DNA of 39,128 bases from Akkermansiaceae bacterium. Its GTDB lineage: Bacteria > Verrucomicrobiota > Verrucomicrobiia > Verrucomicrobiales > Akkermansiaceae. Positions 2,359 through 35,832 of this stretch are shown piece by piece. A program made the position numbers and the translations under genes. The stretch spans positions 1-39,128 of the forward strand of contig JBPOGF010000028.1 in NCBI GenBank assembly GCA_051251915.1, read 5' to 3'. The notes under the pieces were generated by a model. The model ran no database searches, was not told where the DNA came from, and saw only the letters and a list, made by a program, of their open reading frames with translations. How positions within the stretch are numbered: the first letter of the stretch is position 1; each line of letters begins with the position of its first letter.

Positions 2359-2384
2359 CATAATAGAGAGAATACTCTATTATG
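2359..2384. promoter_or_regulatory. Perfect 10-bp inverted repeat overlapping the start codon of the giant gene
   Basis: CATAATAGAG-agaata-CTCTATTATG; the right arm contains ATG 2382-2384. Confidence 0.4.
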
Positions 2385-17355: not shown

Positions 17356-18762
17356 CTAATACAAATGTACTAAATACTGTTCTTTGAGCCCACTCCCCTT
17401 AAGTCGCACTAGGTAAGTTCCTTTTCTAGTTATGGGTTCACTGTCAGGTTCAAAAACAATGGTATCACTGTAGATGTATTTAAAAGCCACCTTAAGCTCT
17501 CTGCCATCCGGTTCATCATTCCAGCTCGGTGCTTTCTCATCAAATTTCTTCAACTTCCACACCTGCACCAAACAATCACTTGGAGCAGATCCTTCCACAA
17601 TGTGATAGCTCCAGCCATTCCCGTGCAAATATTTCACTGGATAAAACCCATGCCCAGGATAAGAATAATTCTTACGCCCACCTCGATCTGAGTGATCCAT
17701 CGAATACATCGCAGAATACGAGCCCTTTATACCAAACCCAGTCTTACCCATCCGATGATTGATACACCACCTACGGTGCCCGCGTCTCTCTCGGTTATTA
17801 GCACCAGCATCATTCATATACTGAGTCACACTACCCGCCATAGTCATCCTTCCCCCATTCATTGCCAAGTTACATTTATCAGTCGAATGACCGAACCCGT
17901 GCGAAAGCTCACCTTTTTCACTACAAATAGAAGCAGCATCAGCGGCCATTTCTATCATCTTCTTATCAGCCTTCACATCATATGGCACCCTACTTAGGAA
18001 CCGATACACGTTAAGTAGGTTTACAGCATCTTGCACCTCCGCCGTGACCCCATTAGGTGCCTCACGAGCTTCGATCTCCTTAATTGTATCTCGTATCTCT
18101 TTCTTCACCTCTTTAGGAGCAAACCCATCATCCACAAATTCTTCAGAACCTACATCCACATCCGCCACTTTCTCACTCTCGTCTTCAGCGGACTCATCCA
18201 CTAATTGCTGCCCGCTCAGTTTCAACTGCTCAAGCCCAAAGTCACGCTCATAAAAGATCACCTCTATACGATCCGGCTTCACTCCTATATTCGCAGAAAG
18301 CACCACTACCGTCGTATCCAGGCGCCATGCCTTTCTCAGATGCTTCACTTTGCCATTCATCATCACAGGCACTTTGACTCCATCTGACCTCAATTTCTCA
18401 GTGATCAGTTTATTCCACCTAGCGGCCTCTGCATCAAAGTCGCTTTTTTTAGTAAATAAAGCAGTTCCCTGATCAAGTACAGTTAGCTTAACACTAACAA
18501 TTTTACCTTTGTTTTGCTGTAAATCCACATGATGAACCGGCTGTCCCCAGAAAGTGAGCCCTTTGCTTTGGTGCACAAACGAACCACTTTCCTCACCCTG
18601 TTCCCAAGACAAGTTAGGGAACTTCTTTGAAATTTTATATTTATTCGATTTCCAAATATCAGAATTTGACGTCAATGGCTCCAAACTCACAGCTTCCGCC
18701 TGCGATACCCCCATCATGGAACACCCGCTAGCAACGACAAGAGATAATAATCCTTTATACAT
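17356..18762 (-). CDS. Secreted CAP (SCP/PR-1)-domain protein
   Basis: Signal peptide from ATG 18762; LLNVYRFL, LSH, GHRRWCIN and MGKTGFG CAP motifs. Confidence 0.75.
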   Translation of the reverse strand: MYKGLLSLVVASGCSMMGVSQAEAVSLEPLTSNSDIWKSNKYKISKKFPNLSWEQGEESGSFVHQSKGLTFWGQPVHHVDLQQNKGKIVSVKLTVLDQGTALFTKKSDFDAEAARWNKLITEKLRSDGVKVPVMMNGKVKHLRKAWRLDTTVVVLSANIGVKPDRIEVIFYERDFGLEQLKLSGQQLVDESAEDESEKVADVDVGSEEFVDDGFAPKEVKKEIRDTIKEIEAREAPNGVTAEVQDAVNLLNVYRFLSRVPYDVKADKKMIEMAADAASICSEKGELSHGFGHSTDKCNLAMNGGRMTMAGSVTQYMNDAGANNRERRGHRRWCINHRMGKTGFGIKGSYSAMYSMDHSDRGGRKNYSYPGHGFYPVKYLHGNGWSYHIVEGSAPSDCLVQVWKLKKFDEKAPSWNDEPDGRELKVAFKYIYSDTIVFEPDSEPITRKGTYLVRLKGSGLKEQYLVHLY

Positions 18763-18809
18763 ACGAGAACCGTGCAACGGCTAGTACCGTATTTCCAGTT
18801 AAAATTACA

Positions 18810-20426
18810 TTAAAATCGATGACTCAAGCCTAGACGCATTTGAAAACTAGAGTCAGATCCCTCAGATGAAGTATAAACTGAAGCATAACCCACTGTAGAA
18901 GAAGAGAAAGCGTAACTAGTTCTTAGCCCCAATCTCACCCAAGTGTCCTCTAGTGAATTGTTATTCTGACCTTTAGCCAAATCTGATATCCTCGTTTCAT
19001 AATCATCACTCGCTCGCTGAGCTAATTCAATGACTCCTACAAGCTGAGTTTTTGTGGTAATTTGATACTTAGCATCCACACCTGTTCTCCAAATGCTCAC
19101 CTGGTTAGAAAGTTCATCCATATCCAGCACACCAAATCGGTACCCGTCTTGCTCTGAATCTATCCATGTATAAGACACTTTCGGAGTAAACCTTACACCT
19201 TTCCACTGAAATACATCTTCAACCTGCGCTCCTATAAATACAGCTGTCGAACTTCCATCAACATCAGCCCTCGTGCTCCCAACTTGCATGTCATTACTCC
19301 ACAAACTATGACTTAAAATACCAGTGAGCCGCAAATTTTCATCTGAAAATGTATAACTAGAGCCTAGACTTAGTGTGTTCCCACTAGTGTCACTTTCACC
19401 ATGAAGTAAATCACGAGTTAGTGACGAATGCGCTAGCCCAAGTCCAAACGTGAAATTCTCTTTCCCGAAACTATTTAACAATGCCACCTCACCACCAAGT
19501 TGCTCCACCTCTAATGCGTCATGCTGCAGGTAGTTCACACCAGTTTTAATCTGCCAGTCGCCAACAAGCAACCCAGAATCCGGCCGATAGTGATTCATTG
19601 AGTCTGATAAGAACCCCAAATGCGCAGTGTTACTCTGAACCTGAGCCTGCAACCCTTGAATCATTGAACTTTGCAATATTTCTTTAATCGCATTTAAAGT
19701 ATCTTCTACATCTTCTACATCTTCTACATCTTCTACATCTTCTACATCTTCATTACCTTCATTACCTTCATTACCTTCATTACCTCCTGTCGTATCTCCC
19801 CCTGTAGAGCCATCTGTATCCCCTTCCACACTTATTTGTGGAACTACTGAAGTATCGTTATACTCAGAAGCCGCTATTTCCACATTCCCGTTAATAGAAT
19901 AAATCGCAAACCCCATATTAGTAGCCCCATCCGATATCCATGAGTTCACGACCGACGTCACATCGACACTCACCACTCCTGAGTCAGAAAAATAATACGT
20001 TCCCACTACGGGAACATCAGTCCCTTGCACATACGTATCGAACCAAGCTCCCTTGTCAGGCGCAAGCATGTAGTTCTCAAAGCTGTCCTGAAGAGCCACC
20101 AACTGCACCGTTGCGCTCCCAACAGTTCCCACCTGCGAAATAGGAATATCCGCACCACTATCGACTAACGTCACATACTCAACAGCACTTAAATCTAGAA
20201 ATTTATCACCTCCAAGACCAAGCGATGACACATCAAAATCTAGTACCCCAAAGTTGAAATGACTCGTATCTGGGCGAGTAGATTCTCCCAAAGTTATCTG
20301 AGTATCGCCCTGGTTGTTAGTTCCAATAAACAGATAACTATCCGTATCAAAAGTGGCAGTTATTTGAGCCAAACTAACATTGGCTAACAGAAGAGCGAGT
20401 GAGTAAGTAGTAATGATTCCTTTCAT
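18810..20426 (-). CDS. Autotransporter-like outer-membrane protein with N-terminal DNRLRE-like passenger and acidic repeat linker
   Basis: Signal peptide; passenger FGVLDFDVS...VDVTSVVNSWI...NMGF; C-terminal amphipathic beta-barrel (FTPKVSYTW, terminal LGLSHRF). Confidence 0.7.
   Translation of the reverse strand: MKGIITTYSLALLLANVSLAQITATFDTDSYLFIGTNNQGDTQITLGESTRPDTSHFNFGVLDFDVSSLGLGGDKFLDLSAVEYVTLVDSGADIPISQVGTVGSATVQLVALQDSFENYMLAPDKGAWFDTYVQGTDVPVVGTYYFSDSGVVSVDVTSVVNSWISDGATNMGFAIYSINGNVEIAASEYNDTSVVPQISVEGDTDGSTGGDTTGGNEGNEGNEGNEDVEDVEDVEDVEDVEDTLNAIKEILQSSMIQGLQAQVQSNTAHLGFLSDSMNHYRPDSGLLVGDWQIKTGVNYLQHDALEVEQLGGEVALLNSFGKENFTFGLGLAHSSLTRDLLHGESDTSGNTLSLGSSYTFSDENLRLTGILSHSLWSNDMQVGSTRADVDGSSTAVFIGAQVEDVFQWKGVRFTPKVSYTWIDSEQDGYRFGVLDMDELSNQVSIWRTGVDAKYQITTKTQLVGVIELAQRASDDYETRISDLAKGQNNNSLEDTWVRLGLRTSYAFSSSTVGYASVYTSSEGSDSSFQMRLGLSHRF
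19701..19787. repeat. Compound in-frame 9-bp tandem repeat
   Basis: (ATCTTCTAC)x5, ATCTTC, (ATTACCTTC)x3, ATTACCTCC; encodes (GNE)n(DVE)n. Confidence 0.95.
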
Positions 20427-20496
20427 AAAATATATTTTGTTCTGCTGAAAATCCTAGTAACCATCACATCGAAGTAAAATTCTAATTAGCCAGATC

Positions 20497-20533
20497 TTAG
20501 CGCTCAAATACACTCCGCTAGCGTCCAATATAC
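20497..20533 (+). promoter_or_regulatory. Putative AraC-family operator, 21-bp-period direct repeat
   Basis: TTAGCGCTCAAATACA (20497) and CTAGCGTCCAATATAC (20518). Confidence 0.55.
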
Positions 20534-20617
20534 TTATCCCTCTCATATCCCACACTTATGTTCTAGATTACAAATTTTGGCTTGTTGCAGAAATAAATAG
20601 TCTCTAATCGCATCAAG

Positions 20618-22939
20618 ATGAATCACAGCCAAAAAAGAAATAATCTAACAGTCCGTAAATTTACTACATCACTTTCGGTTCTAACAATTACCCTCACTTC
20701 CCAATCTCCTGCCCAGAAACCTGAAGAACCAAAAACGACTATAGAAACGATCCCCGACATAGAAACCATCGTAGACCTCGGTGAATCTACCGTCATAGGA
20801 AACTCCTATGAGACGCCCTGGCTAGAAACCACTGGCTCAGTCACTGCTATCCTCCAAAAGGACTTCATTACATTTGGCGGCGCAGACTTTGGCGATCTCG
20901 TGAAATACGACCCCACCGTCACAGCCCCCTTTAACTACGGCAGTGCAGATGGGAGCTTCGGCTACGCCCAAACAGGATACACTGGTTACAACATCCGAGG
21001 AGTAGAAGGAAACAGAGTCAGCATGCTATTAGATGGAATCAGACAGCCTGAACAATACATCTCTACTACCTTCGCTCAAGACGAAGGCTCCTCAGGAGGT
21101 GGCGGACGTGATTATTATGATCCCGCCATCTTCGCCTCCACCGAGATTCTCAAAGGATCAGCTAGCTCACTCTACGGTAGTGATGCCTTAGCTGGCGTGG
21201 TCTCATTTAAAACCCCAACCCCACAAGACTTCTTCACCCATGATGATGACAACTTCGGAGGCCTACTCAGAACCCAACAATTCAGTTCCAACAGTAGCGC
21301 AGCCACACAAGCATTTGCAGCATTTCGTAAAGACAAATTCGCCATCATGCTAGGACTCGCCTACCGCGAAGGAAAAGAATCAGAAAACAACGGCAACACA
21401 CCACCGAACCCATTAGAATCCAATAGTCTCAACCTCTTGTCTAAATTCCAATGGAATATTGATGACGGAAATAAAGTGGAGCTAACACTAGAACACTTCA
21501 ACAGAGACCGAACCGTAAACGCGCTTAGCGCAAATCAATTTCAAAACATCTTCGACAAAGCAATCATCAATTGGGAAAACCAAGCAAGAGCAAGATTTAG
21601 CCTCAACTGGGATCACACACCCACTGACTACAATACCAGATTCTACGACTCCGTAGAATCAAACCTCTACTACCAAGCATCTCAAAATTCTAGTATCAAC
21701 AAAAGCGAGGCTCTAACAGGAAGAATCCGAGACCAGATCATCGAATTCGATACAAACATCTTAGGCTATAGCTCAAAATTCCTAAAAGAAACTCAACATC
21801 AACAAATAACCTACGGCATAGAAGCATCCAGCAGCAGATCAGAAAACCGTTTCTACAGAGAAGACACCGGACTACCTCCATACCCTAACAGAATATCCTT
21901 CGCTCCATCAGACACCATCAGAGCCGCATCATACATCCAGTCAGAATTTAGACCCACATCAGCTAGCCCATGGTCATTCATCCTCGGACTGCGCCTAGAT
22001 TATTACAATGTTCAACCAGAGCTCAGCAGTGATTACCTAGAAAGAATCACCAGACTCAGTGAAGGAGCCACCGCATACAATCCAGCGGAAGAACTAAATA
22101 ACCTCACTATCGCTCCCAGATTCGACGTCAAATACGACCTCACAGCAGACAGTAGAATCTACGCCAAATACTCCAGAGGTGTGCGCAACCCAACAGCAGA
22201 AGAAATATCCATGATCTTCGACCACCCATCTGTAGACGGAAGCTCCACTGGTTCACTCACACTTCCTAATCCAGACCTCAAAGAAGAAAGCAGCAACGCC
22301 TACGAAATTGGCTACAAGTACTTGACCGATGATATAAAATTTCAAGCATCCAGCTTCTACACTAAATATTCTAACTTTATCGAAAACGCTACTCCCACCG
22401 GCCAACAAAGCACCGATGGACAAGACATCCTCACCACTGTCAACCGAGGTTCAGCCACAATCTATGGATACGAGCTCAGCGGCAGCGTAAACTTAGCCCG
22501 CTTCCACGACCACCTAGATTGCTTTGAAATAGGGCTCTCAACAGGGAAAACTTGGGGGATAAACAATGATGACAACACCTGGATTAACTCCATCGAACCA
22601 TGGAAATCAGTAGCTTGGTTAGGCTACACTAGCATGAATGAAAAATTCTCTTCTCGTCTCTCTGCCACTTACGTAGACAGTGTAAAAAGAGTCAACGATG
22701 ATGACGGCGGTCCATACTTCCGCCCACCATCATACTTCACCATCGACCTTTCTGCATCATATCAAATCAATGAGTCATTAAGTGTCCAAGCAGGCATCAA
22801 CAACCTATTTGATGAGCAGTATTGGCAATGGTCAAACTCCCGTCGCTCCGGTGGACACATCCAAAATGCTGACTCTGTAGACGACCGCAGTACCGCTCCT
22901 GGAACCAATGGTTTCTTATCAATAGAATATTCATTCTAA
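20618..22939 (+). CDS. TonB-dependent haem/haemoglobin receptor (HmuR/HutA-like)
   Basis: Plug motifs YNIRGVEGNRV and EILKGSASSLYGSDALAGVV; FRAP-like VRNP and NPNL-like NPDL flanking a His (FDHP); GINNLFDEQYW; terminal Phe. Confidence 0.85.
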   Translation: MNHSQKRNNLTVRKFTTSLSVLTITLTSQSPAQKPEEPKTTIETIPDIETIVDLGESTVIGNSYETPWLETTGSVTAILQKDFITFGGADFGDLVKYDPTVTAPFNYGSADGSFGYAQTGYTGYNIRGVEGNRVSMLLDGIRQPEQYISTTFAQDEGSSGGGGRDYYDPAIFASTEILKGSASSLYGSDALAGVVSFKTPTPQDFFTHDDDNFGGLLRTQQFSSNSSAATQAFAAFRKDKFAIMLGLAYREGKESENNGNTPPNPLESNSLNLLSKFQWNIDDGNKVELTLEHFNRDRTVNALSANQFQNIFDKAIINWENQARARFSLNWDHTPTDYNTRFYDSVESNLYYQASQNSSINKSEALTGRIRDQIIEFDTNILGYSSKFLKETQHQQITYGIEASSSRSENRFYREDTGLPPYPNRISFAPSDTIRAASYIQSEFRPTSASPWSFILGLRLDYYNVQPELSSDYLERITRLSEGATAYNPAEELNNLTIAPRFDVKYDLTADSRIYAKYSRGVRNPTAEEISMIFDHPSVDGSSTGSLTLPNPDLKEESSNAYEIGYKYLTDDIKFQASSFYTKYSNFIENATPTGQQSTDGQDILTTVNRGSATIYGYELSGSVNLARFHDHLDCFEIGLSTGKTWGINNDDNTWINSIEPWKSVAWLGYTSMNEKFSSRLSATYVDSVKRVNDDDGGPYFRPPSYFTIDLSASYQINESLSVQAGINNLFDEQYWQWSNSRRSGGHIQNADSVDDRSTAPGTNGFLSIEYSF

Positions 22940-23018
22940 CCTTACTCCTCAATTCATCGTCAAAGTTCAACAAAACACCGTTAGCACACAACCAATATTT
23001 AGTGCTTAATTCAATTTA

Positions 23019-23492
23019 ATGAATCAAGGAGCCAACACAAATAAATACCTGATCCTCTACGGAACCCAAACCGGAACCGCAGAGGATCTCGCTGAGCAGC
23101 TATCGCAAGACCTAGACGATCAAGGCATCTCACACAGTTTAGAAAACATGTTTGATATCACTCTTGAAAAAGTGAAGTCATTTCAGCGTGTTTTTATTAT
23201 TGTAAGTACCTGGGGAGACGGCGACCCGCCTGATGATGCAGAAGATTTACTTGTAGCTCTCCAAGCATCGGACAGACTCTATTTCGCGGGAAGTGAATTC
23301 ACCGTATTTGGGCTAGGTGATACTAATTACGACTACTTCTGTAAATGCGCGGTCGACTTTGATGAAGCATTAACCAACGCAGGAGCATCACAAATCATTC
23401 CCCTTGTGAAAGCTGACCTCGAATTTGATGACAAGTTTGACACCTGGTCACAAAACATTTTAAACACTCTGCCATCCATGGTTGAACAATAG
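23019..23492 (+). CDS. Short-chain flavodoxin (MioC/CysJ FMN-domain type)
   Basis: YGTQTGTAE, STWGDGDPPDDA, FGLGDTNYDYFC. Confidence 0.9.
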   Translation: MNQGANTNKYLILYGTQTGTAEDLAEQLSQDLDDQGISHSLENMFDITLEKVKSFQRVFIIVSTWGDGDPPDDAEDLLVALQASDRLYFAGSEFTVFGLGDTNYDYFCKCAVDFDEALTNAGASQIIPLVKADLEFDDKFDTWSQNILNTLPSMVEQ

Positions 23493-23516
23493 GTGGCCAT
23501 ACCTAGTGTGAACTAA

Positions 23517-23584
23517 GGCTAGCTAGTAAGACGTATCTGTATCGTGATTGTAACAAAAACGTTCTTACTAGTTAGCCATTTTTT
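23517..23584 (+). terminator. Intrinsic terminator of the receptor-flavodoxin unit
   Basis: GGCTAGCTAGTAAGA...TCTTACTAGTTAGCC 15-bp stem (one G-U) with a long loop, followed by ATTTTTT. Confidence 0.6.
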
Positions 23585-23588
23585 GAGA

Positions 23589-24386
23589 CTATGACTGATC
23601 GCTATAACAAGCAGTCTCTAAGTAATGCTTCCACCGCTTGAACGGTGAAGATGAATGAACCCTTATTTTATAAATAATATCAGCATAAGAATTATACATG
23701 ATCAGATTCAAACAATCCATCTGGTCCACCACCTCTCCACAAATCCTAATGCTATGGATAGCTGACAAATTAAGGATGGTTTTCCCATCTCCCAAAAGTA
23801 CAGCATAGCCTCCGTGGAAGTCAACGGACTTAACATTCATCGAGAAAACAGCCCTACAAAAATTCTCCCCTAATTCTATTTCCAACTGCTTATCACTGAC
23901 TATCCCTTCAGATACTTCCATTAGCATCAAAGCCAATGGATGTTTATCCGTGCTCGCTTTAATGACATTAACTCGCTTCACACAACAAGGGCAATCTCCA
24001 GTCCGCATCCCTTTACATGAAGTCCTCATATAAACAGAGCCATCCATATCAAGGCATTTTAATAAATTCCAGAAATCGATAGACTGAACAGCCTGTAGCC
24101 GTATCTCTATTTCAGAACTATCAGAGAACCTCGCCCACAGCATCAACCTGTTATCACACCGTTCCACTTGCATCTGCTCTACCTTTGACAGGTTAAAAAT
24201 AACTTCCCCCTGGTAACTCATAATCTCTTCTCCTAGTGCAATAAAACCACTTCTAGACAGATTAACCGTGACCTCATTATCATAAGACCTCACCACACAT
24301 TGCTTAATAGCCATCTTTTCAAATAACACGGGGATACCTCTACTAGTGTGATCTATAGGAGTTCTCATTTTCATTTTTGTATTCAT
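23589..24386 (-). CDS. Highly diverged HemS/ChuX-fold protein with central CPCC motif
   Basis: C-terminal half (LALMLME...LEIELG...ILNLSAIHSIRI...LNLIMYNSYADIIYKI) follows the HemS domain strand pattern; haem-locus context. Confidence 0.5.
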   Translation of the reverse strand: MNTKMKMRTPIDHTSRGIPVLFEKMAIKQCVVRSYDNEVTVNLSRSGFIALGEEIMSYQGEVIFNLSKVEQMQVERCDNRLMLWARFSDSSEIEIRLQAVQSIDFWNLLKCLDMDGSVYMRTSCKGMRTGDCPCCVKRVNVIKASTDKHPLALMLMEVSEGIVSDKQLEIELGENFCRAVFSMNVKSVDFHGGYAVLLGDGKTILNLSAIHSIRICGEVVDQMDCLNLIMYNSYADIIYKIRVHSSSPFKRWKHYLETACYSDQS

Positions 24387-24397
24387 AATTATTTTTG

Positions 24398-25117
24398 TTA
24401 AGCAGCTTCAATAAAAAACTGGGCCCTCCCCTTAGCGTCGTAAAACGTCCCTCTGAATTTAGATCGTTTTACGTTAAGATCGACATCAACGATAACTCTT
24501 GAGTTTAAACTCAACTGCCTTTTCTCTGAACACAGATTCATCGTTCCAAACTTAGTCATCAGTCCGCCAACATCGTGATACCTTTTCACCACACCTCCCG
24601 CAGTATGGAGAACACACCTCAGTTTTGACCCTCGGATTATTTCTCTATTGATTACTTTAGCAGCTTCTTCGACCATCGGATTAAGACTCTTATTTATCAG
24701 GCTCTCCTTGAAATCAGGCAGACCACACTCTTGTTCAGCCTCATTTGAAAAAGTCTGCAGGATACATTGAAAACAATCCCAATGACTACTAGGGGTAAGC
24801 GTGATCTGATGAAACACTAAGTCATCATCCCCTGAGAAATACACAGTAGCCTCCTTCATCTTCTCATTCACTACAGCCCACCCTCTAACCCATTTCTCAG
24901 TATGCCATCGCTGCTGTTCATCTAGGCTAAAGCTACTATTCTCCGTAGCGTTTGAGATCAACCTAGGGTAATTCCCGTTCTCCACAATAGTAGCTAGTGT
25001 GTTAGTATATACTTGCCTAGCAGGCCCGACTGTATGGACTCTATCCAACAAGCGGCTCCATGATGGCTTTAATGAATAGATCGTATTTTTTTCTTGGTGC
25101 ATGACTTTATCATACAT
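24398..25117 (-). CDS. Diverged two-domain HemS/ChuX-fold haem-handling protein
   Basis: LKPSWSRLL...VG...TN...ENGNY...W..GWAV...VYFSGDDDLVFHQITLT matches HemS domain 1; FYDAKGRAQFF matches the end of domain 2. Confidence 0.65.
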   Translation of the reverse strand: MYDKVMHQEKNTIYSLKPSWSRLLDRVHTVGPARQVYTNTLATIVENGNYPRLISNATENSSFSLDEQQRWHTEKWVRGWAVVNEKMKEATVYFSGDDDLVFHQITLTPSSHWDCFQCILQTFSNEAEQECGLPDFKESLINKSLNPMVEEAAKVINREIIRGSKLRCVLHTAGGVVKRYHDVGGLMTKFGTMNLCSEKRQLSLNSRVIVDVDLNVKRSKFRGTFYDAKGRAQFFIEAA

Positions 25118-25154
25118 ATCACCTCAATTTGCGATAACGTGTGATTCACTATTT

Positions 25155-25170
25155 TTAGCGATCAAATACA
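25155..25170 (+). promoter_or_regulatory. Third copy of the island motif
   Basis: TTAGCGATCAAATACA, 15/16 identical to the 20497 site. Confidence 0.55.
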
Positions 25171-25373
25171 GACGATCAGAAGCCAACCTTCATAATTCAA
25201 AAAATTCTCAGTTCCAATAAACTGTTAGATATTCACACAACATCAAAGGAACACTAAATCACGACAACAGGGCGTTATCGCTTCATCTCATTGTAAGCTA
25301 TCTATCTTGCGTAGTTAAAAAACTGACTACTAGGCACTCAGTGCATAAACATAAAAAAGATAAAATAATTACC

Positions 25374-26096
25374 ATGAAAACAACAATACTAGCAATAGCC
25401 ACTCTAACAACATTAGGAGCTAGTGCTAACGCAGCACTCGTGAATCTATCTACATACGATGAATTCGCTGTCTGGGACGACCTCACTGGAGCCGCAGCTA
25501 CCGCAGCAGGAATCAACACAGGCAGCTTTACTACCCCAACAGATTGGGTTCTCACAAGTGACGGAACCACAGCTGCCACACTTGCACCTCAAAATGGAGC
25601 ATCCAGCAGTGCTGGCGCATTAGGAAAAGTAGTAACCACAACCACGGGTGGCGGATACTTAGCTTCAACAGGTATTTATACTGGTAACTTTGCCACTACA
25701 TTCTTCTTAGAAAAAACAGCCAGTCTAGCAGATGTAGAAAACGTCGTATTCCAAATTGATCTGGACAATAATTCTGATTGGGTCGCACCAACCCTCAGTT
25801 ACAACGGAGGAGCTCAAGCAATATCAGCTGTAGAAATGATCATTTCTTCTGAAGCCACCAGCGGTGCTTTTGGACCAGCTACAGCACAAGAGCTTCTCTA
25901 CCAATGGGATCTCAGCGCAATAGCAGATAACATTACTGACTATACCATCGAATTTGGGACTGGAGTTCATATTCCTATCCCCGAACTTAGCCTAGCGTCA
26001 TCTGAAGCTTTCACTGTTGTTTCAGTCCCTGAACCAAGCAGTTCCACTTTGATTACTCTCGGTGCCTTAGGTCTCCTCATCAGAAGAAAACGTTAG
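25374..26096 (+). CDS. PEP-CTERM sorting-domain surface protein
   Basis: Signal peptide MKTTILAIA...ANA-A from ATG 25374; C-terminal VPEPSS, TM helix, RRKR. Confidence 0.92.
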   Translation: MKTTILAIATLTTLGASANAALVNLSTYDEFAVWDDLTGAAATAAGINTGSFTTPTDWVLTSDGTTAATLAPQNGASSSAGALGKVVTTTTGGGYLASTGIYTGNFATTFFLEKTASLADVENVVFQIDLDNNSDWVAPTLSYNGGAQAISAVEMIISSEATSGAFGPATAQELLYQWDLSAIADNITDYTIEFGTGVHIPIPELSLASSEAFTVVSVPEPSSSTLITLGALGLLIRRKR

Positions 26097-26130
26097 TCAT
26101 CTACTTGTTCATCACTTGTTTTAGACACTG

Positions 26131-26172
26131 TAATGGCTGTTCACCTTCGTTAGGTGAACAGCCATTATTTTT
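26131..26172 (+). terminator. Rho-independent terminator
   Basis: TAATGGCTGTTCACCT-tcgtt-AGGTGAACAGCCATTA perfect 16-bp stem plus T5. Confidence 0.9.
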
Positions 26173-26230
26173 AACAAACTCTACACTTTAAAAGAATTTG
26201 CTAGATTATATAGATTTTCATAAATAACTT

Positions 26231-26251
26231 TATTGACAATGAGTCTCAATA
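26231..26251. promoter_or_regulatory. Fur-type box overlapping a TTGACA -35 element of the AraC gene
   Basis: TATTGACAATGAGTCTCAATA imperfect palindrome; core TGACAAT-G-AGTCTCA versus 7-1-7 Fur consensus TGATAAT-N-ATTATCA. Confidence 0.65.
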
Positions 26252-26300
26252 GCGATAGCTGGACGTAGCAAGAACCCATCTTACTAGAAAACGTCATTCT

Positions 26301-27191
26301 ATGAGCGAAAAACATTCAACCCTTTATGGTAATCCAGAAAAAAACCAAGTCTGTATCACATACTACAAAGGTGAATCTACCTCTACATGGATAAATTCAA
26401 TTCGTGAAAACACGCTACACATCATATTTAATTTATCAGGAAACCTACTCATTTTCGATGACAATGTTAGACTGAACATCATTCCCGGAACTCTTGCAAT
26501 CTGGCATAGAGGGAATGACACCAACCCACATATCAACCGTATTACGGCAGAGCCCCCCTCACCCTCCACCGACTTAGAAACCATAGTAATTAGCACTCCT
26601 CTTCATTGGTTACAAACTACATTTGGTAACAAGAGAGAAGCCCTTCACCCCGCTCTACAAACAATCCTTGATCAGTCCTCGTCATCCCTGGAATTGGGTA
26701 AAATACGCTCAATGCTAGTCACCGAAATTAGCCTAGCCAGAGACCTAATATCCCCCCCAGTCTACTCCTCTGCTATGCCATTTTGGTACGCGGCTAAAGT
26801 CATGGAAGTCATCACTCTTCACCTATTCACAAATATCTCCACACACGATAACAACATCTTCAAAGGACAGGCTAAATCAACAAACCAGAGACTAATCACA
26901 CTCGCCATTGACTGGCTCCATCAACACCTAGATGAAGCTCTAAACCTCAAAGACCTCTCACAACATCTAGGCTGTAGTTCACAATACATCAGTCGAATAT
27001 TCTCTGAAAATACTGGTAAAACTCTCACCCTCAGTCTCCGTTCTATAAGAATAAACAAAGCCGCTGAGTTACTCAATAGCGGAGACTACAATGTCACAGA
27101 AGCTGCTATGGAAGTAGGTTACAGTAGTTTATCTCATTTCACTAAGGTCTTCATCTCAGAAAAGGGAGTAAAACCCTCTCAGTTCATTTAA
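26301..27191 (+). CDS. AraC-family transcriptional regulator (PchR/YbtA-like)
   Basis: C-terminal double HTH (YISRIFSENTG; NVTEAAMEVGYSSLSHFTKVF..EKGVKP); WYAAKVMEVI resembles the PchR-type linker helix. Confidence 0.9.
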   Translation: MSEKHSTLYGNPEKNQVCITYYKGESTSTWINSIRENTLHIIFNLSGNLLIFDDNVRLNIIPGTLAIWHRGNDTNPHINRITAEPPSPSTDLETIVISTPLHWLQTTFGNKREALHPALQTILDQSSSSLELGKIRSMLVTEISLARDLISPPVYSSAMPFWYAAKVMEVITLHLFTNISTHDNNIFKGQAKSTNQRLITLAIDWLHQHLDEALNLKDLSQHLGCSSQYISRIFSENTGKTLTLSLRSIRINKAAELLNSGDYNVTEAAMEVGYSSLSHFTKVFISEKGVKPSQFI

Positions 27192-27214
27192 TACCCCTCC
27201 CCCCTCATCGAGCA

Positions 27215-27258
27215 TTAGCGGTCATTTAAACTAAATTAGCGCTGAGTCACCGCTAATT
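27215..27258 (+). promoter_or_regulatory. Putative AraC-family operator, 21-bp-period direct repeat plus an inverted copy
   Basis: TTAGCGGTCA (27215), TTAGCGCTGA (27236), and inverted CGCTAATT (27251). Confidence 0.55.
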
Positions 27259-27367
27259 TCCAACATCAGGACATTAGCATATTTTCTCATATTTCACTAA
27301 CTTGACTGCCTCTTCCGGGAACACTTTCTATTCAATAACCTACGGAAGCTATCAACTAATAATAAAA

Positions 27368-28303
27368 ATGAAACATACCATTATCAGCCTGATCAGCATG
27401 ATCACCACCGTTTGTTCAGCCCAAGCACAGCAGTCTACTCAGCAGAAATTTGAACAAGACAGAAAAGCCATTTTAGCCATGACCGGTATCCATAGTGTGG
27501 ACTTTAATTTTCATGAAATCTACTCACTCAATAAAGACTATACCATCAAAGAGAGCAAATATGCTGAGTCGGCGCACGAAGTAGTATTCCTAGTCGAGGA
27601 CACAGGCACCCAAATTACTCTCCAACACATGCTCCAAGTCAAACATGGTGATAACGACGCCGTAGTTAAGCATTGGAGTCAAATCTGGACATACGAAGAC
27701 ACCGAAATCCTCGAATACCAAGGCAAAACCACCTGGAATAAAATCACCTTAGAGAAAACAAACGTAACAGGAACTTGGTCGCAGCTCGTCACGCAAACTA
27801 ACGACAGCCCACGCTACGAAAGCTATGCTACCTGGACTCACTTAGGAGGAATCAGCGAATGGGTCTCAAAAGAAACAGCAAGGCCACTCCCAAGAAGAGA
27901 ATACACCAAACGTAAAGACTACGACATCCTAGTAGCCCGCAACTCTCACATCATCGCCCCTAATGGCTGGACTCATGAACAATCTAACAAAAAACTAGTG
28001 AAACGTGAAAATGCCAACCACTACTTAGCTCTAGAACGAGGTTATAACACTTACACGAAATCTCCTGATTTCGATGTCACTGCCGCAACAACAGAGTGGA
28101 ATGAAACCAAAGAATACTGGAAAGAAATTAGAAACTTCTGGAACCAGAACATGAATAAAAATGACACCTTCAGCTATGTCATGCAAACAGAAGGCACCGG
28201 CATAAGAGAAGCCTTAAGACAACTCATCGACCAAGCCAAAGAAGATAAAAAACTTACCTCTGAGCAAGTAAACAATACGCTCAACAAATACCTTGTTAAA
28301 TAA
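27368..28303 (+). CDS. DUF6607-family secreted protein
   Basis: Signal peptide from ATG 27368; DRKAILAM.G, LQHML, VVKHWSQ.W.YE, DSPRYES, RPLPRREYTKRKDY and GWTHEQ.N.K motifs. Confidence 0.8.
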   Translation: MKHTIISLISMITTVCSAQAQQSTQQKFEQDRKAILAMTGIHSVDFNFHEIYSLNKDYTIKESKYAESAHEVVFLVEDTGTQITLQHMLQVKHGDNDAVVKHWSQIWTYEDTEILEYQGKTTWNKITLEKTNVTGTWSQLVTQTNDSPRYESYATWTHLGGISEWVSKETARPLPRREYTKRKDYDILVARNSHIIAPNGWTHEQSNKKLVKRENANHYLALERGYNTYTKSPDFDVTAATTEWNETKEYWKEIRNFWNQNMNKNDTFSYVMQTEGTGIREALRQLIDQAKEDKKLTSEQVNNTLNKYLVK

Positions 28304-29723: not shown

Positions 29724-30800
29724 CTACTCACCCTCTTTTTCTTCTTCAGCCTCCGCTAGTTTCCTTTTCTTCTTCTCCTCAACGACTTCCTCAGGAGTCT
29801 TAAGAGATGCAATAGCTGCTAAAATATCATCAGACACCTCAACTTCGCTCAACTTAGTTTTCTCAGGTGCCCCCATCTCAATCCACCACTTAAGCACTTT
29901 AAGTTCCTCCGCTGTGATCTGAGGTTTAGATTCTGGAGGCATATGGTAGTCATCATCCTTAGGTAGCATGATCGAGGTGATCATAAAACTACCCTCCACA
30001 TCACCCGCAACAAGACACTCTTCTTCATCCCCCCCATCAAACATCGCTTCCAGCGAGTCCATCCTCAGACTACCTTTGTCTTTATCAGGACCATGACAGC
30101 TTATGCATTTGTTGTCTAAAATCGTATGCACAATATCAGCGTAGATCACTGGATCTATAACCCCATCTACGTTCCCTTCTGCTTCACGTCTAGCGGATAA
30201 CTTACTGGCATCCTCTGCACGTTTATCTAAAATCTTACTTGGCAATGCATTTAGCGGATCACCATGTGTCATCTCCCCACCATGATGACCAGCACTGATC
30301 AACACCCCACCAGTCGCAAACAATGCCAATAAATAGCTAAGCTTTAGACAACTCAGTTTCTTCACATCGTGGCTATATTTCACCAGAAATGTAATTATCA
30401 CCAGAACCGTAAATATTACACCATCTCGTTTATGTTCTTCTACTAATGGTCCCTCAAATTTACCTGTGAGGTAGAGAAAATAACCAAATACCACAGCAAT
30501 GACAGAAGTCCCCGCCGCAAAAGCCAGGGCCAAGGTCGTCTTCGGCTGGTATTTACCAAATGAGATCACCCCTACCCCCTCCATCGTCAATACCAAAACC
30601 GTTGCTCCAATTGGTAAATGCAACATCAGAGGATGAAGCTTCCCAAAAAAGTTCATCCATAATCCCATACTATCCGCCGTCTTAGGATCAGCCGCTCCCA
30701 CCTCTCCGATCCAAGGCATGACAGCTACTGCCACAGCAGTTAGAATGCAGATCCCAACCACAATTCCATACCATTTCGTCTCATTTTTTGCCTTATCCAT
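29724..30800 (-). CDS. Membrane protein (DUF2231-like His-containing TM domain) fused to a planctomycete-type cytochrome c domain
   Basis: HPLMLHLPIG, GHHGGEMTHG, CISCH, HMPP and WWIEMGA motifs. Confidence 0.85.
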   Translation of the reverse strand: MDKAKNETKWYGIVVGICILTAVAVAVMPWIGEVGAADPKTADSMGLWMNFFGKLHPLMLHLPIGATVLVLTMEGVGVISFGKYQPKTTLALAFAAGTSVIAVVFGYFLYLTGKFEGPLVEEHKRDGVIFTVLVIITFLVKYSHDVKKLSCLKLSYLLALFATGGVLISAGHHGGEMTHGDPLNALPSKILDKRAEDASKLSARREAEGNVDGVIDPVIYADIVHTILDNKCISCHGPDKDKGSLRMDSLEAMFDGGDEEECLVAGDVEGSFMITSIMLPKDDDYHMPPESKPQITAEELKVLKWWIEMGAPEKTKLSEVEVSDDILAAIASLKTPEEVVEEKKKRKLAEAEEEKEGE

Positions 30801-32519: not shown

Positions 32520-35276
32520 TCAACATTGGTTAAGTAATTTCTCTACCGCATTCAGCACATTCTCAGGCTGAACCTGCCATTCTACATACCCCACAGGAAC
32601 CAGCTTCATCCCCGCACGCTCTAGTATCTGATGACGATTAATCCCCACCGCATTTTGAGTAAATCCAGGGTATCCCACCAAATCCACCCCTAAATACCGC
32701 CCATTCTTCTCCAACAACACATCCACTGGAATAGCTGCCACCGTTTCATTCATCTTGCTAGTGATCCCCTTCTCCCCACAAGCTTTAGTAAACTCTATAG
32801 CAAATGAATTAACTTCATCTGTTCTACCCTCTCCCTCATATTGCCCAGAGTTAGAGTCACCTTTCCCAGAGAAAGATAAATATTTCCCTAACAACGAATG
32901 AATAGGTAAATCCTGAGGTTTGACTGAATGGAAAATAACCTGCTGATGCTTAGCCCGCGTAATGCTAACATTGAACACATCCTCTTGCTCAATAAAACGT
33001 CGAGTCCCCGCATTATCAGATTTACCGAGCCCCACACTAATAAGCATCACATCACGCTCCTCACCCTGAAAACTATGCGCAGTCCCGACTTTCAGCTGAT
33101 GTCTACTAAGTCGATACACATACTCAGCCTCCACCGCTAATTCATTCACCGCATCAGTTAGCGCATCAACCTGAGAACGAAAAGGAGAGAGTATGCCAAT
33201 GCTCTTCAGAGGCTCATCACTCTTTTCACCCTCGTCTAACAAACGTAACAATTCAACAATTACAGCACTTATCTCCCCCTCATTAACCCCATCCTCACCC
33301 CTGTCTCCTTCACAGTAATTGAAAACTAAAGCCCGCTCAGATACTCTCTCCCATGGCCGATCGCGCATTAACCTTAGATCACCTTGATAAAACTCCGTAT
33401 TACTAAACTCAATAATTGGTTTCAAACTTCGAAAATGCTCGTTCAACAACGCTACCTGACTCCCATCATGCGTATTCTCAATCGCCAAATCCATCAAACT
33501 AACATCTCGATAATCATATTTCGCTCTATCCTCTTCGCTGAGTTGTAAATCACGTGCAAACTTATCCATGCTATTCCTCGCGATGAATGACACATGCCGC
33601 AACTGCTTCTCATCTCCCGCTATCACCACCCGTTTAGCCCGCTGAATAGCTGGTAAAGCACTAGCTATATCGCACTGACTAGCCTCATCAATGATCACCA
33701 CATCAAACATCTCCTGCTTAGGAGGCAAAACCCGATGCAGATCGCTCAAACTCGTGATCCAAATAGGAAACACATTTAAAACCGAATCAAAATCCGCAGA
33801 AGAAAACGCAGCCAACTGCTCGGACGATTTAGTTTTCTTCAAAGCCGTCAGCAACTTCTTCAAATCACCCCTAGTCCGAGCGTCAGCCATCACACTATTC
33901 AGCAAATAATCTTGCTGAGTCCGGATCAACTTACGAATCGTGACCTCTCTCTGCTGATGCAACTGACCTAAATGATTGCACAATTGAATCAGCACAGGTC
34001 TCCCCTTAACTTTACCCTCATACCAAAGCTTCAAAAGCCGCTCATACCAACGCGGATTAGGCTTCGCAGAAACCTCACCCCTAGCAATTGATTTCGCATA
34101 CTCTTCAGTAAGCTGTGATTCATCTCTCGCTATATCTTCTAGTAGATCCATCAACTTCTGAGTCACCCCCCCCAACCGATGGTTCGCCTCAAGTGGTGAC
34201 GGATGCCTCGTTGATAAAATCTTAGACACTCTAGCTTTCAAATTCTTCAGGTAATCACTACGCCCAGCCCGCACAATAGCAACTCTAGACTCTAACAGCT
34301 CCTTTGTCTTCTCATACAGCACATCCACCGCATGATCCTTCTTAGAAACAATCAACACCGTCTCACCACGTGCAATGTGATCAATAGCTATCGCTGCAAG
34401 AGTAAATGACTTCCCAGTCCCAGGAGGTCCATGACAAACGGTTAAAGCATTAAAGCGAGCTGACTTCAACAAATGATCTTGATTCTCACTCAGCAACACC
34501 GGAGCCAACGTCGGCTTCATCAACTGCTCTTTAACCACACTCGGCTTAGCTTTCACTCTAACTCCATCAAAAAACAACGCTTCCAAAGCCGATGACCAAT
34601 TCTCCTTCTTAAATTCACCCAACTTCTCAAGCTCATCCACCACTCCACTTGACCCTCTAGAGCGCTTCACCACTCCCCATCCCGCAGCTGAAATAATCCT
34701 CAACCCAGTCCCCAATTTACTATTCACCGCTGACACTGGAGACACATGTGGCCATTCAATCAGTTTGTTGACATTCACCTCTGACATATTACCCCGGAAA
34801 ACTTCAGCGATGCCAGACACAGCCACACTAGTAAGAACTCCCTCACTACCTCGCAACGCTTCCATAATGCCCTGCTCGATCTGTTGCTTATTATCCAACA
34901 CATCTAACAGCGAGTAATTGATCCGATACAAACTATACTCCAGACTAACAGAAATAGTCTCACCATACCTCTTGACTGTTGCCGGATAAAGAATGAGCGG
35001 AGCCCTGTAGACCTTCCCTCCTACCTTCCCTAGGAAAAACAAACACCCATACAAAAACTCTTTCTCTCGATCATGCAGAGAAAGATTCAGCATCAATTTC
35101 TCAGCGTAGGCCGGAGCTAAAATATCTTCATCCAGAAACCCACAGCCTAACTTATCCTCACCTTTCACCATCAACCGATTCTCCATCGACCTCGCCACAA
35201 AATCACGCACCCCAGCACGCGTGTGATCTTCCCTGTAGCATTCCCTAAGCCACCTAATGAGCGATTGATGATCCAT
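32520..35276 (-). CDS. Superfamily-1 (DNA2/NAM7/Upf1-like) helicase with degenerate C-terminal restriction-endonuclease-like domain
   Basis: HGPPGTGKS, IIDEASQ, AGDEKQL, LNEHFRS, TAHSFQGEERD and FNVSITRAK motifs; ATG 35276 avoids overlap with blc. Confidence 0.88.
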   Translation of the reverse strand: MDHQSLIRWLRECYREDHTRAGVRDFVARSMENRLMVKGEDKLGCGFLDEDILAPAYAEKLMLNLSLHDREKEFLYGCLFFLGKVGGKVYRAPLILYPATVKRYGETISVSLEYSLYRINYSLLDVLDNKQQIEQGIMEALRGSEGVLTSVAVSGIAEVFRGNMSEVNVNKLIEWPHVSPVSAVNSKLGTGLRIISAAGWGVVKRSRGSSGVVDELEKLGEFKKENWSSALEALFFDGVRVKAKPSVVKEQLMKPTLAPVLLSENQDHLLKSARFNALTVCHGPPGTGKSFTLAAIAIDHIARGETVLIVSKKDHAVDVLYEKTKELLESRVAIVRAGRSDYLKNLKARVSKILSTRHPSPLEANHRLGGVTQKLMDLLEDIARDESQLTEEYAKSIARGEVSAKPNPRWYERLLKLWYEGKVKGRPVLIQLCNHLGQLHQQREVTIRKLIRTQQDYLLNSVMADARTRGDLKKLLTALKKTKSSEQLAAFSSADFDSVLNVFPIWITSLSDLHRVLPPKQEMFDVVIIDEASQCDIASALPAIQRAKRVVIAGDEKQLRHVSFIARNSMDKFARDLQLSEEDRAKYDYRDVSLMDLAIENTHDGSQVALLNEHFRSLKPIIEFSNTEFYQGDLRLMRDRPWERVSERALVFNYCEGDRGEDGVNEGEISAVIVELLRLLDEGEKSDEPLKSIGILSPFRSQVDALTDAVNELAVEAEYVYRLSRHQLKVGTAHSFQGEERDVMLISVGLGKSDNAGTRRFIEQEDVFNVSITRAKHQQVIFHSVKPQDLPIHSLLGKYLSFSGKGDSNSGQYEGEGRTDEVNSFAIEFTKACGEKGITSKMNETVAAIPVDVLLEKNGRYLGVDLVGYPGFTQNAVGINRHQILERAGMKLVPVGYVEWQVQPENVLNAVEKLLNQC

Positions 35277-35286
35277 AGACTCTAGA

Positions 35287-35832
35287 TTACTTTTTCTCGT
35301 GATCCACAAAGATCAAGCTCTCCACATCAAACCCTAGCTTCTGCGCACTATCTATAAATTGTTTTTTCTCTGCCTCACTCACCGTTGGCGTCCGAGACAA
35401 GAACCAGAGATAATCTTTATTGTAACTAGTAATATAGGCGTAATTGTAATCTTTTTCATCCAGCTCAAACACCGCATAAGAACCATAAAATGGACCAAAA
35501 AATGAGACCTTCAAATGCCCCACATCTGGGCTTTTAACAAAATAAGCCTTCCCCACAGCCTCACTCCACTCACCCTTCTCTGCATCGTAACCTCTATTAA
35601 CGACCTTCAATCCACCATCTTCTTTGACCGTGTATTCAGCACTAACCTGACTCAATCCTCGCTCAAATGAATGATCCAAACGTGCAATCTCATACCAAGT
35701 ACCTAAATACTTATCCTTTTGAAACCCCTCTACAGGTTTTATCCCATCGGGCAGCCCCACACAGCTATTCATACCATAAAAGCCAACAACCAAAATACTG
35801 ATGAGTCCGACCAATTTGAATTTATGTTTCAT
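35287..35832 (-). CDS. blc: Bacterial lipocalin
   Basis: YLGTWYEIARLDHSFERGL, LKVSFFGPFYGSY, YLWFLSRTP. Confidence 0.93.
   Translation of the reverse strand: MKHKFKLVGLISILVVGFYGMNSCVGLPDGIKPVEGFQKDKYLGTWYEIARLDHSFERGLSQVSAEYTVKEDGGLKVVNRGYDAEKGEWSEAVGKAYFVKSPDVGHLKVSFFGPFYGSYAVFELDEKDYNYAYITSYNKDYLWFLSRTPTVSEAEKKQFIDSAQKLGFDVESLIFVDHEKK

Follow-up and report, generated by a model that had tools for sequence, protein, structure and literature searches.

The closest described counterpart of the locus analysed here is the rhuH-rhuR-rhuA system of Riemerella anatipestifer, which combines a haemophore, a TonB-dependent haem receptor, a surface accessory protein and a Fur box (PMC11967795; PDB 8XJC). 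According to the accessible part of that report, RhuH binds haem via His96, takes haem from haemoglobin, is regulated by Fur and adjoins the haem receptor; iron-free porphyrin is bound about a million-fold more weakly (PMC11967795). The same part of the report places RhuH homologues in Flavobacteriales. The present analysis concerns an eight-gene island (positions 18810–28303) in a 39,128-nucleotide stretch of DNA from an Akkermansiaceae bacterium (Verrucomicrobiota). This stretch, referred to below as the window, makes up contig C21; the genome to which it belongs is 4.0 Mb in size and 98% complete. The island resembles the Riemerella system in having the RhuH fold with its ligand histidine, a TonB-dependent haem receptor, surface accessory domains and a Fur-like box.

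Other known systems resemble individual parts of the island. PhuR and ShuA, the receptors of the phu, shu and hem operons, are the best structural-database matches of the island receptor and share its FRAP/NPNL-type loop. PchR and YbtA are AraC-type activators of siderophore receptors. Like the island, they combine an AraC helix-turn-helix (HTH) with a Fur-like box ahead of the regulator gene and an operator specific to receptor and accessory genes; the island shows the DNA elements as motifs, and its targets are haem genes. Proteins joining CBM96/DNRLRE domains to PEP-CTERM signals share fold and sorting signals with the island's surface proteins, whereas the subfamilies found here are linked with an iron regulon and have His/Tyr residues that are conserved. 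Particle-attached marine bacteria use haem as an iron source, and HutA of Caulobacter is a known haem transporter. A literature search that excluded most subscription papers returned no account of haem uptake or of a haemophore in Verrucomicrobia, none under the name DUF6607 (hence no link between RhuH and the Pfam family), nothing connecting PEP-CTERM with haem/TonB or with iron limitation/Fur as seen here, and no haem-responsive AraC activator.

Results

The initial annotation of this DNA, made from the sequence alone, had proposed an undescribed haem-acquisition system built from PVC-type parts. The eight open reading frames (ORFs) were found at the positions and in the orientations that it gave. 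When the 28 ORFs of the window were scanned against the curated cut-offs of Pfam and NCBIfam, the flavodoxin, AraC, DUF6607 and PEP-CTERM products each scored above the Pfam cut-off, and the tonB, exbBD and hmuTUV families were missing from the window, as had been stated. Acquisition of haem by the island is well supported, and the eight genes very likely form a haem-uptake regulon. Its core, a haem receptor plus a RhuH-type protein, is of a known kind, while the Fur-AraC cascade that would control it is apparently undescribed and the two surface domains are uncharacterised.

The last gene of the island (27368..28303, + strand; likely start at the ATG at 27368) encodes a DUF6607 protein. A profile of 61 DUF6607 homologues had one strong structure match, the 'haemophore' 8XJC (E 1.4e-85), and the window protein alone matched the same entry with phmmer (E 3e-47; 33–35% identity). 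The predicted structure (pLDDT 96.1) has the barrel-like fold of RhuH and superposed on 8XJC with a TM-score of 0.87–0.91 (E 4.9e-27). His102, in a KHW motif (27671–27673), aligns with RhuH His96, the numbering being counted on the phmmer alignment. The equivalents of His96, Arg143, Tyr144, Arg170 and Gln198 are invariant in 61/61 homologues, and four of the five RhuH propionate contacts, which are predicted rather than solved in the accessible part of the RhuH report (PMC11967795), are invariant in the family. By eye, the N-terminus resembles a signal peptide. Sequence and model place the DUF6607 protein in the RhuH haemophore family, and haem capture is its predicted function.

This assignment changes the earlier picture of the island. 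The initial annotation saw no recognisable haemophore, a view rejected here since the DUF6607 protein matches RhuH by sequence, fold and ligand histidine; its guess that DUF6607 is a haem-capture part was right because the family is that of the RhuH haemophores, and for the same reason the system is not wholly undescribed (PMC11967795, as far as that source was accessible). A scan using a single protein sequence gave no matches, and an alignment-based scan gave 545 receptor loci, the best 80 of which (27 verrucomicrobial and 53 other) were used as a sample. DUF6607 stands beside the receptor in 20/27 verrucomicrobial and 40/53 other loci. Because it flanks the receptor in most non-verrucomicrobial loci, DUF6607 is not a PVC-type part, and the idea of a PVC-specific family was discarded. 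The family was found in only 9/351 genomes of the phylum. DUF6607 also occurs in four genomes of small size, none with a receptor match near the gene, and there it forms its own branch in the tree.

The receptor gene (20618..22939, +) encodes a PhuR/ShuA-like TonB-dependent protein. It passed the cut-off of the haemoglobin/haem receptor family TIGR01786 (349.9 bits; cut-off 323.75) and fell marginally under that of TIGR01785 (315.1 versus 316.85). Scores against the siderophore and B12 receptor families were far under their cut-offs (106.5 versus 223.5 and 52.7 versus 599.7, respectively), which agrees with the haem type proposed earlier. The closest solved structures are PhuR (E 4.6e-65) and ShuA. 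Among relatives, the receptor of Rubritalea spongiae is the closest (58%), followed by that of R. tangerina (53%); the loci of both coincide with loci of two genomes assigned to the same genus as the window, so that the host is probably a Rubritalea. In the VRNP...NPDL loop, His536 (22223–22225) aligns with the loop histidine of ShuA and is invariant in 26/26 verrucomicrobial receptors. A second histidine, His747 in the last loop (22856–22858), which sets this receptor apart from PhuR and ShuA, is conserved in 24/26. At a related locus (L097), a receptor of this clade follows genes for a periplasmic binding protein, an ABC ATPase and a PNPOx-fold protein, which is the usual haem-operon layout. 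The receptor likely transports haem, as predicted from its family and loop residues.

A Fur-like palindrome overlooked in the initial annotation lies at 26232..26250 (+), upstream of the gene for an AraC-family regulator (26301..27191, +; HTH_18 E 2e-18). It ranks eighth genome-wide, and the seven higher-ranking boxes all precede iron-type genes. Similar boxes precede exbBD-tonB on contig C8, a Fe3+-type ABC operon on contig C6, an HS1 paralogue (see below) and four of the six other TonB receptors of the genome; six of the genome boxes came from a search with a pattern based on the window box itself, and one (on C31) was found independently. A Fur-like box also precedes araC in six relatives. 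The genome carries three Fur-family genes, and the shape and targets of the 26232 box suggest that Fur would bind it. Close homologues of the AraC regulator were present in 4/4 same-family receptor-bearing genomes tested.

A motif recurring in three intergenic regions of the island had been noticed earlier. An independent test showed that it is real, and it was also found in a fourth region, upstream of the flavodoxin gene. The pattern TTAGCG[AC]TCAAATACA, assumed to be the motif noticed earlier, has its sole two matches in the 4.0 Mb genome at 20497 and 25155 (up to one mismatch), a count that is post hoc because the pattern was derived from those two sites; the site at 27236 has only the TTAGCG half in common with them. 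A generic repeat finder failed to single out the motif. An operator matrix was trained on 33 promoter regions chosen by hand at 22 related loci, with the window left out. The de novo operator, GGCAA-N5-CGCTAA, scored above 8 bits in 27/33 of these regions, and among 36 strong sites a partner was found at +21 in 12 and at −21 in 6. Repeats of 21 bp are typical of AraC operators; this spacing was first spotted by eye in a set that included the window sites.

In a scoring of 21-bp tandems over 3,177 intergenic segments of the genome, island segments ranked 1, 2, 13 and 33. None of 1,000 column shuffles placed two island segments in the top two, and spacings of 11, 20, 22 and 31 bp produced no comparable island ranking. 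The top intergenic tandem lies upstream of the flavodoxin gene (22948..22984, +; sites at 22948 and 22969) and the second upstream of the RhuH-like gene (27215..27251, −; 27215 and 27236). Operator-like sites 21 bp apart between the barrel-protein gene and the receptor gene (20497..20533, −; 20497 and 20518) rank 14 among 60 positive intergenic tandems, and weaker sites lie between HS1 and the PEP-CTERM gene (25128..25170, −; 25128/25134 and 25155), with single-site scores of 7.6 and 5.8 bits and a low tandem score. Among 10 held-out loci, 5 or more had sites of at least 15 bits ahead of the RhuH-like gene, at a distance of no more than about 80 bp. The island sites retain CGCTAA and diverge in the GGCAA half, and the first HTH of the window AraC has the sequence SSQYISRIF, compared with APHYLSR in most of 14 homologues, a change that may match the drift of the operator. 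AraC is predicted to bind the tandem sites and, from gene context and motifs, is likely the activator of the island; haem would be its effector. A scan for sigma-70 promoters and terminators stayed at chance level (12 versus 19.8 and 9 versus 7.5, respectively).

Two surface proteins of the island carry jelly-roll domains. The first, the barrel protein (18810..20426, −), consists of a signal peptide, a CBM96/DNRLRE-like passenger (about residues 21–200), an acidic linker and a probable C-terminal barrel of about 295 amino acids ending in Phe, as read from the sequence. This architecture fits that of a type Va autotransporter, in line with the earlier label; the barrel part had no match to an autotransporter family or to any other entry in Pfam, NCBIfam or the PDB, and full-length homologues are few (three strong). 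The linker, of EDV/GNE type, is encoded by 9-bp tandem repeats at 19692–19763. The passenger is 48–54% identical to PEP-CTERM proteins beside the receptor at two related loci (L001 and L003), and other members of its family end in an F[FY]RL-type tail. Matches to TGFb_propeptide were obtained for 14/19 members and to CBM96 (PF24517) for 13/19; the window passenger had no Pfam match at 0.01 and scored 26.7 against NF033679 (cut-off 34). Its His56 (20259–20261) is kept in 17/19. Directly downstream, and possibly co-transcribed, is a gene for a CAP-domain protein (17356–18777, −), with no counterpart in the first 12 related loci.

The second surface protein (25374..26096, +; likely start at the ATG at 25374) carries a domain designated YQW and ends in a PEP-CTERM signal with PEP motif, transmembrane segment and basic tail (PF07589, 23.4 versus 20.7; TIGR02595, 18.8 versus 16). 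A search at E ≤ 1e-3 gave 581 representatives of the YQW domain. Among 156 proteins, Tyr102 (25677–25679) is conserved in 154/155 and His199 (25968–25970) in 121/150; 103 of these proteins have PEP-CTERM tails, 16 have F[FY]RL tails and 37 are other or unclassified by the patterns used. The YQW model (pLDDT 85.9) is a jelly roll with best fold matches at Z 8.3–8.9, and the best value, 8.9, indicates a common jelly roll only. The domain had no sequence match in the PDB and no Foldseek match at E ≤ 1e-3.

Both domains were surveyed in 301 genomes of the order; 25 receptor matches that were weaker and belonged to another family were excluded. A passenger or YQW domain was present within 6 kb at 22/23 strong-clade receptor places, and in the 80-locus sample accessory domains occurred at 22/27 verrucomicrobial versus 0/53 other loci. 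Passenger matches lay near a receptor at 14/18 places; YQW matches did so in 16/16 cases at E ≤ 1e-30, 20/43 at 1e-10 and 20/64 at 1e-5. Away from receptors, 20 loci were checked, comprising 19 of 44 YQW places (mostly the best-scoring) and one passenger place. DUF6607 was present in 10 of them, the same AraC in 10 and either in 12; a receptor fragment was seen in one, and DUF6607, AraC and receptor were all missing in seven. Therefore, the occurrence of the YQW domain follows that of AraC-RhuH, and the occurrence of the passenger follows that of the receptor. Haem capture by the PEP-CTERM protein and the passenger is possible, given how tightly they co-occur with either the receptor or the RhuH and AraC genes and given their conserved His/Tyr residues. 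By analogy with Riemerella RhuA, the surface domains would be accessory to uptake, most likely as tethered parts that hold haem or dock haemoproteins.

Between the receptor and PEP-CTERM genes lie a short-chain flavodoxin gene (23019..23492, +; PF00258 E 6e-29) and, on the opposite strand, HS2 (23589..24386, −) and HS1 (24398..25117, −). The initial annotation called the latter two HemS-fold genes. HS1, a divergent HemS-like protein, matched PF05171 with E 0.017 (15.5 bits; cut-off 24), a match found in 1/11 family members, and its profile matched HemS structures in the PDB weakly (E 0.056). The position of the HemS distal arginine is Arg in 1/11 members, and HS1 is about 100 amino acids shorter than HemS, with the His-bearing HemS segment outside the aligned stretches (we take the proximal and distal residues to be His196 and Arg102). 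HS2 has no evident signal peptide, contains a CxCC motif (23985–23993) invariant in 9/9 members, and may have a HemS/ChuX-like fold. It had no HemS match in Pfam or the PDB; HemS appeared in 19–24% of the members of its ESM Atlas neighbours, which is a lead only. A comparison of the HS1 and HS2 profiles gave a probability of 2.6%. The designation canonical HemS was rejected, as HS1 missed the PF05171 cut-off and HS2 had no match; both are weak HemS-fold candidates for which haem degradation is unsupported.

The distribution of the pair differs from that of the receptor. Among 24 congeners, HS1 is present in 10, HS2 in 6 and the receptor in 3; of five HS-bearing congeners lacking this receptor, one has another receptor above the TIGR01786 cut-off and one has a receptor slightly under it. 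Outside the genus, single queries found neither gene, and a profile search found HS2 at two loci (L110 and L147). The usual neighbours of HS1-HS2 are flavodoxin, feoB or araC, and the pair is convergent with flavodoxin, as in the window, at L061, L063, L066 and L067. Beside verrucomicrobial receptors, HS1 occurs in 0/27 and HS2 in 2/27 loci. A paralogue of HS1 (C6:68236-68973) sits behind a Fur-like box. HS1, HS2 and flavodoxin probably belong to the regulon and would handle haem or haem iron in the cytoplasm. The release of iron by these proteins, as proposed earlier, has nothing beyond co-regulation in its favour, because the homology of the pair is marginal and its adjacency to receptors rare.

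Elsewhere in the genome, a Fe3+-type ABC operon behind a Fur-like box (C6:88133-92918) is a candidate for the inner-membrane step if iron is removed in the periplasm. Its first gene encodes a 279 amino acid protein without a Pfam family, and the operon also has the genome's best single intergenic operator-type site.

Other features of the window lie outside the island. The product of 2382–10082 (+) has 2,566 amino acids and combines TPR repeats with bacterial alpha-2-macroglobulin domains. A DUF2231 membrane domain fused to a planctomycete cytochrome c (29724–30800, −) is near the island, with no motif noted. A superfamily 1 helicase (AAA_11/AAA_12; 32520–35309, −) with a weak C-terminal MTES_1575 nuclease match is a possible defence gene. 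The GC skew is strongly and uniformly negative over 1–37000 and then switches.

Discussion

These results point to a probable iron-repressed haem-uptake regulon in which Fur controls an AraC regulator acting at a tandem operator, a RhuH-like protein captures haem and a PhuR-type receptor imports it. When iron is low, Fur would be released from araC, and AraC would activate four promoters via the tandem operator with its 21-bp spacing. Once exported, the RhuH-like protein would bind haem by its conserved histidine, and the receptor would import haem, powered via the TonB-ExbBD encoded elsewhere in the genome (exbBD-tonB on C8). Compared with the accessible description of rhuH-rhuR-rhuA (PMC11967795), control here apparently passes through an AraC cascade, the accessory role of RhuA would fall to jelly-roll domains anchored by PEP-CTERM, barrel or F[FY]RL tails, and the host is an environmental verrucomicrobium.

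Several observations weigh against this reading. RhuH Arg183 is Ala in the window protein and never Arg among the 61 homologues, and the dimer residue Glu160 is also lost (relative to PMC11967795, as far as accessible). Eight of nine extended DUF6607 loci have no adjacent haem receptor, seven of these eight keeping KHW. The plug histidine of ShuA/PhuR-type receptors is replaced by G/A/M/V/I/P in 26/26 verrucomicrobial receptors, and the trimmed window receptor has no His within its first 150 residues; this plug residue is a haem ligand in ShuA and PhuR. Unlike the genomes with phu, shu or hem operons, this one yielded no hmuTUV-type permease and no canonical HemS/PhuS. Family searches detected neither a full FecCD/HmuU permease (top score 43 bits, versus 284–288 in two congeners) nor a haem oxygenase, HmuY, HemS above cut-off or FeoB. 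The single operator sites of the island are degenerate (5.8–12.0 bits), both surface domains show CBM-like folds, and the highest co-location counts, those of profiles A2, A4, A9 and A10, are partly circular because these profiles were built from receptor-adjacent genes.

Cassettes of AraC, RhuH-like and YQW genes also occur in genomes that have no receptor above the TIGR01786 cut-off (5/5 cassette-bearing genomes tested). Such cassettes were seen at seven loci and often add a 339–367 amino acid protein without a Pfam family and a pilin-like gene; the latter is recurrent, with an N-methyl motif in 7/7 submitted sequences, five of them above cut-off. In a FastTree phylogeny with unsupported deep nodes, 9/10 RhuH-like proteins of receptor-less genomes grouped with receptor-linked verrucomicrobial ones, which suggests that the receptor was lost or relocated in these genomes. 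At two other loci (L170 and L171), YQW domains lie within long secreted proteins adjoining genes of 1,275–1,316 amino acids that have no Pfam match and are pseudopilin-like, neighbours that we take to be pseudopilin cassettes. An extended form of the model seems doubtful to us. In it, the jelly-roll domains would be two new haem-binding families with His/Tyr ligands, displayed on interchangeable anchors, that pass haem on from RhuH to the receptor, with a haem-sensing AraC in control, and the receptor-less cassettes with the pilin-like gene would be a receptor-independent route.

The surface domains could instead recognise glycans and, when iron is scarce, anchor the cell to haem-rich particles or to host cells, with haem uptake left to the core. 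The CBM96 matches in the passenger family, the carbohydrate-binding modules among the best matches of the YQW model (Z 7–8.4) and the 113 PEP-CTERM-like ORFs of the genome are consistent with this proposal, whereas strong copies of both domains are nearly confined to the regulon, both conserve ligand-type residues and a CBM-like fold alone says nothing on function. We consider it a serious contender of somewhat less than even probability, and it is compatible with the regulon model for receptor, RhuH and AraC. Much the same standing, plausible if not quite favoured, is given to the idea that iron-regulated cassettes make up the island as a mosaic, HS1-HS2-flavodoxin being an iron-starvation module unrelated to haem breakdown, flavodoxin replacing ferredoxin and CxCC binding metal or an Fe-S cluster. 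The pair adjoins feoB at L061, L063 and L066 (HS1 alone at L072) and araC at L065 and L068, HS1 is commoner than the receptor among congeners, and both genes are rare beside receptors. However, operator-like sites precede HS1 or flavodoxin in the window, L067 and L072, an HS2 homologue lies within the receptor cassette at L110 and L147, and three methods gave weak HemS signals.

A different ligand, such as a metal-free porphyrin, a chlorophyll derivative or a siderophore, might be imported by reused haem-type parts. The missing plug histidine, the lack of a downstream haem transporter or oxygenase among the families found in the genome, and the position of DUF6607 among siderophore-type uptake genes at L030 and L032 (read from ORF starts and receptor matches) would suit this explanation. 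On the other hand, the receptor family scores, the invariant loop histidine and the invariant RhuH iron-ligand histidine favour haem, as does the far weaker binding of iron-free porphyrin by RhuH in the accessible part of its description (PMC11967795), and we regard another ligand as unlikely.

The regulon model gives DUF6607 a predicted function as a haemophore, and it would widen the range of RhuH haemophores from Flavobacteriales, where the accessible part of the original report places them (PMC11967795), to Verrucomicrobia and Proteobacteria. It places two families of PEP-CTERM cargo, a class mostly without known function, in a context and names candidate residues for haem binding that can be mutated. 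For a phylum in which the uptake of iron has barely been described, it also offers a Fur-AraC regulon and a predicted operator that can be put to the test.

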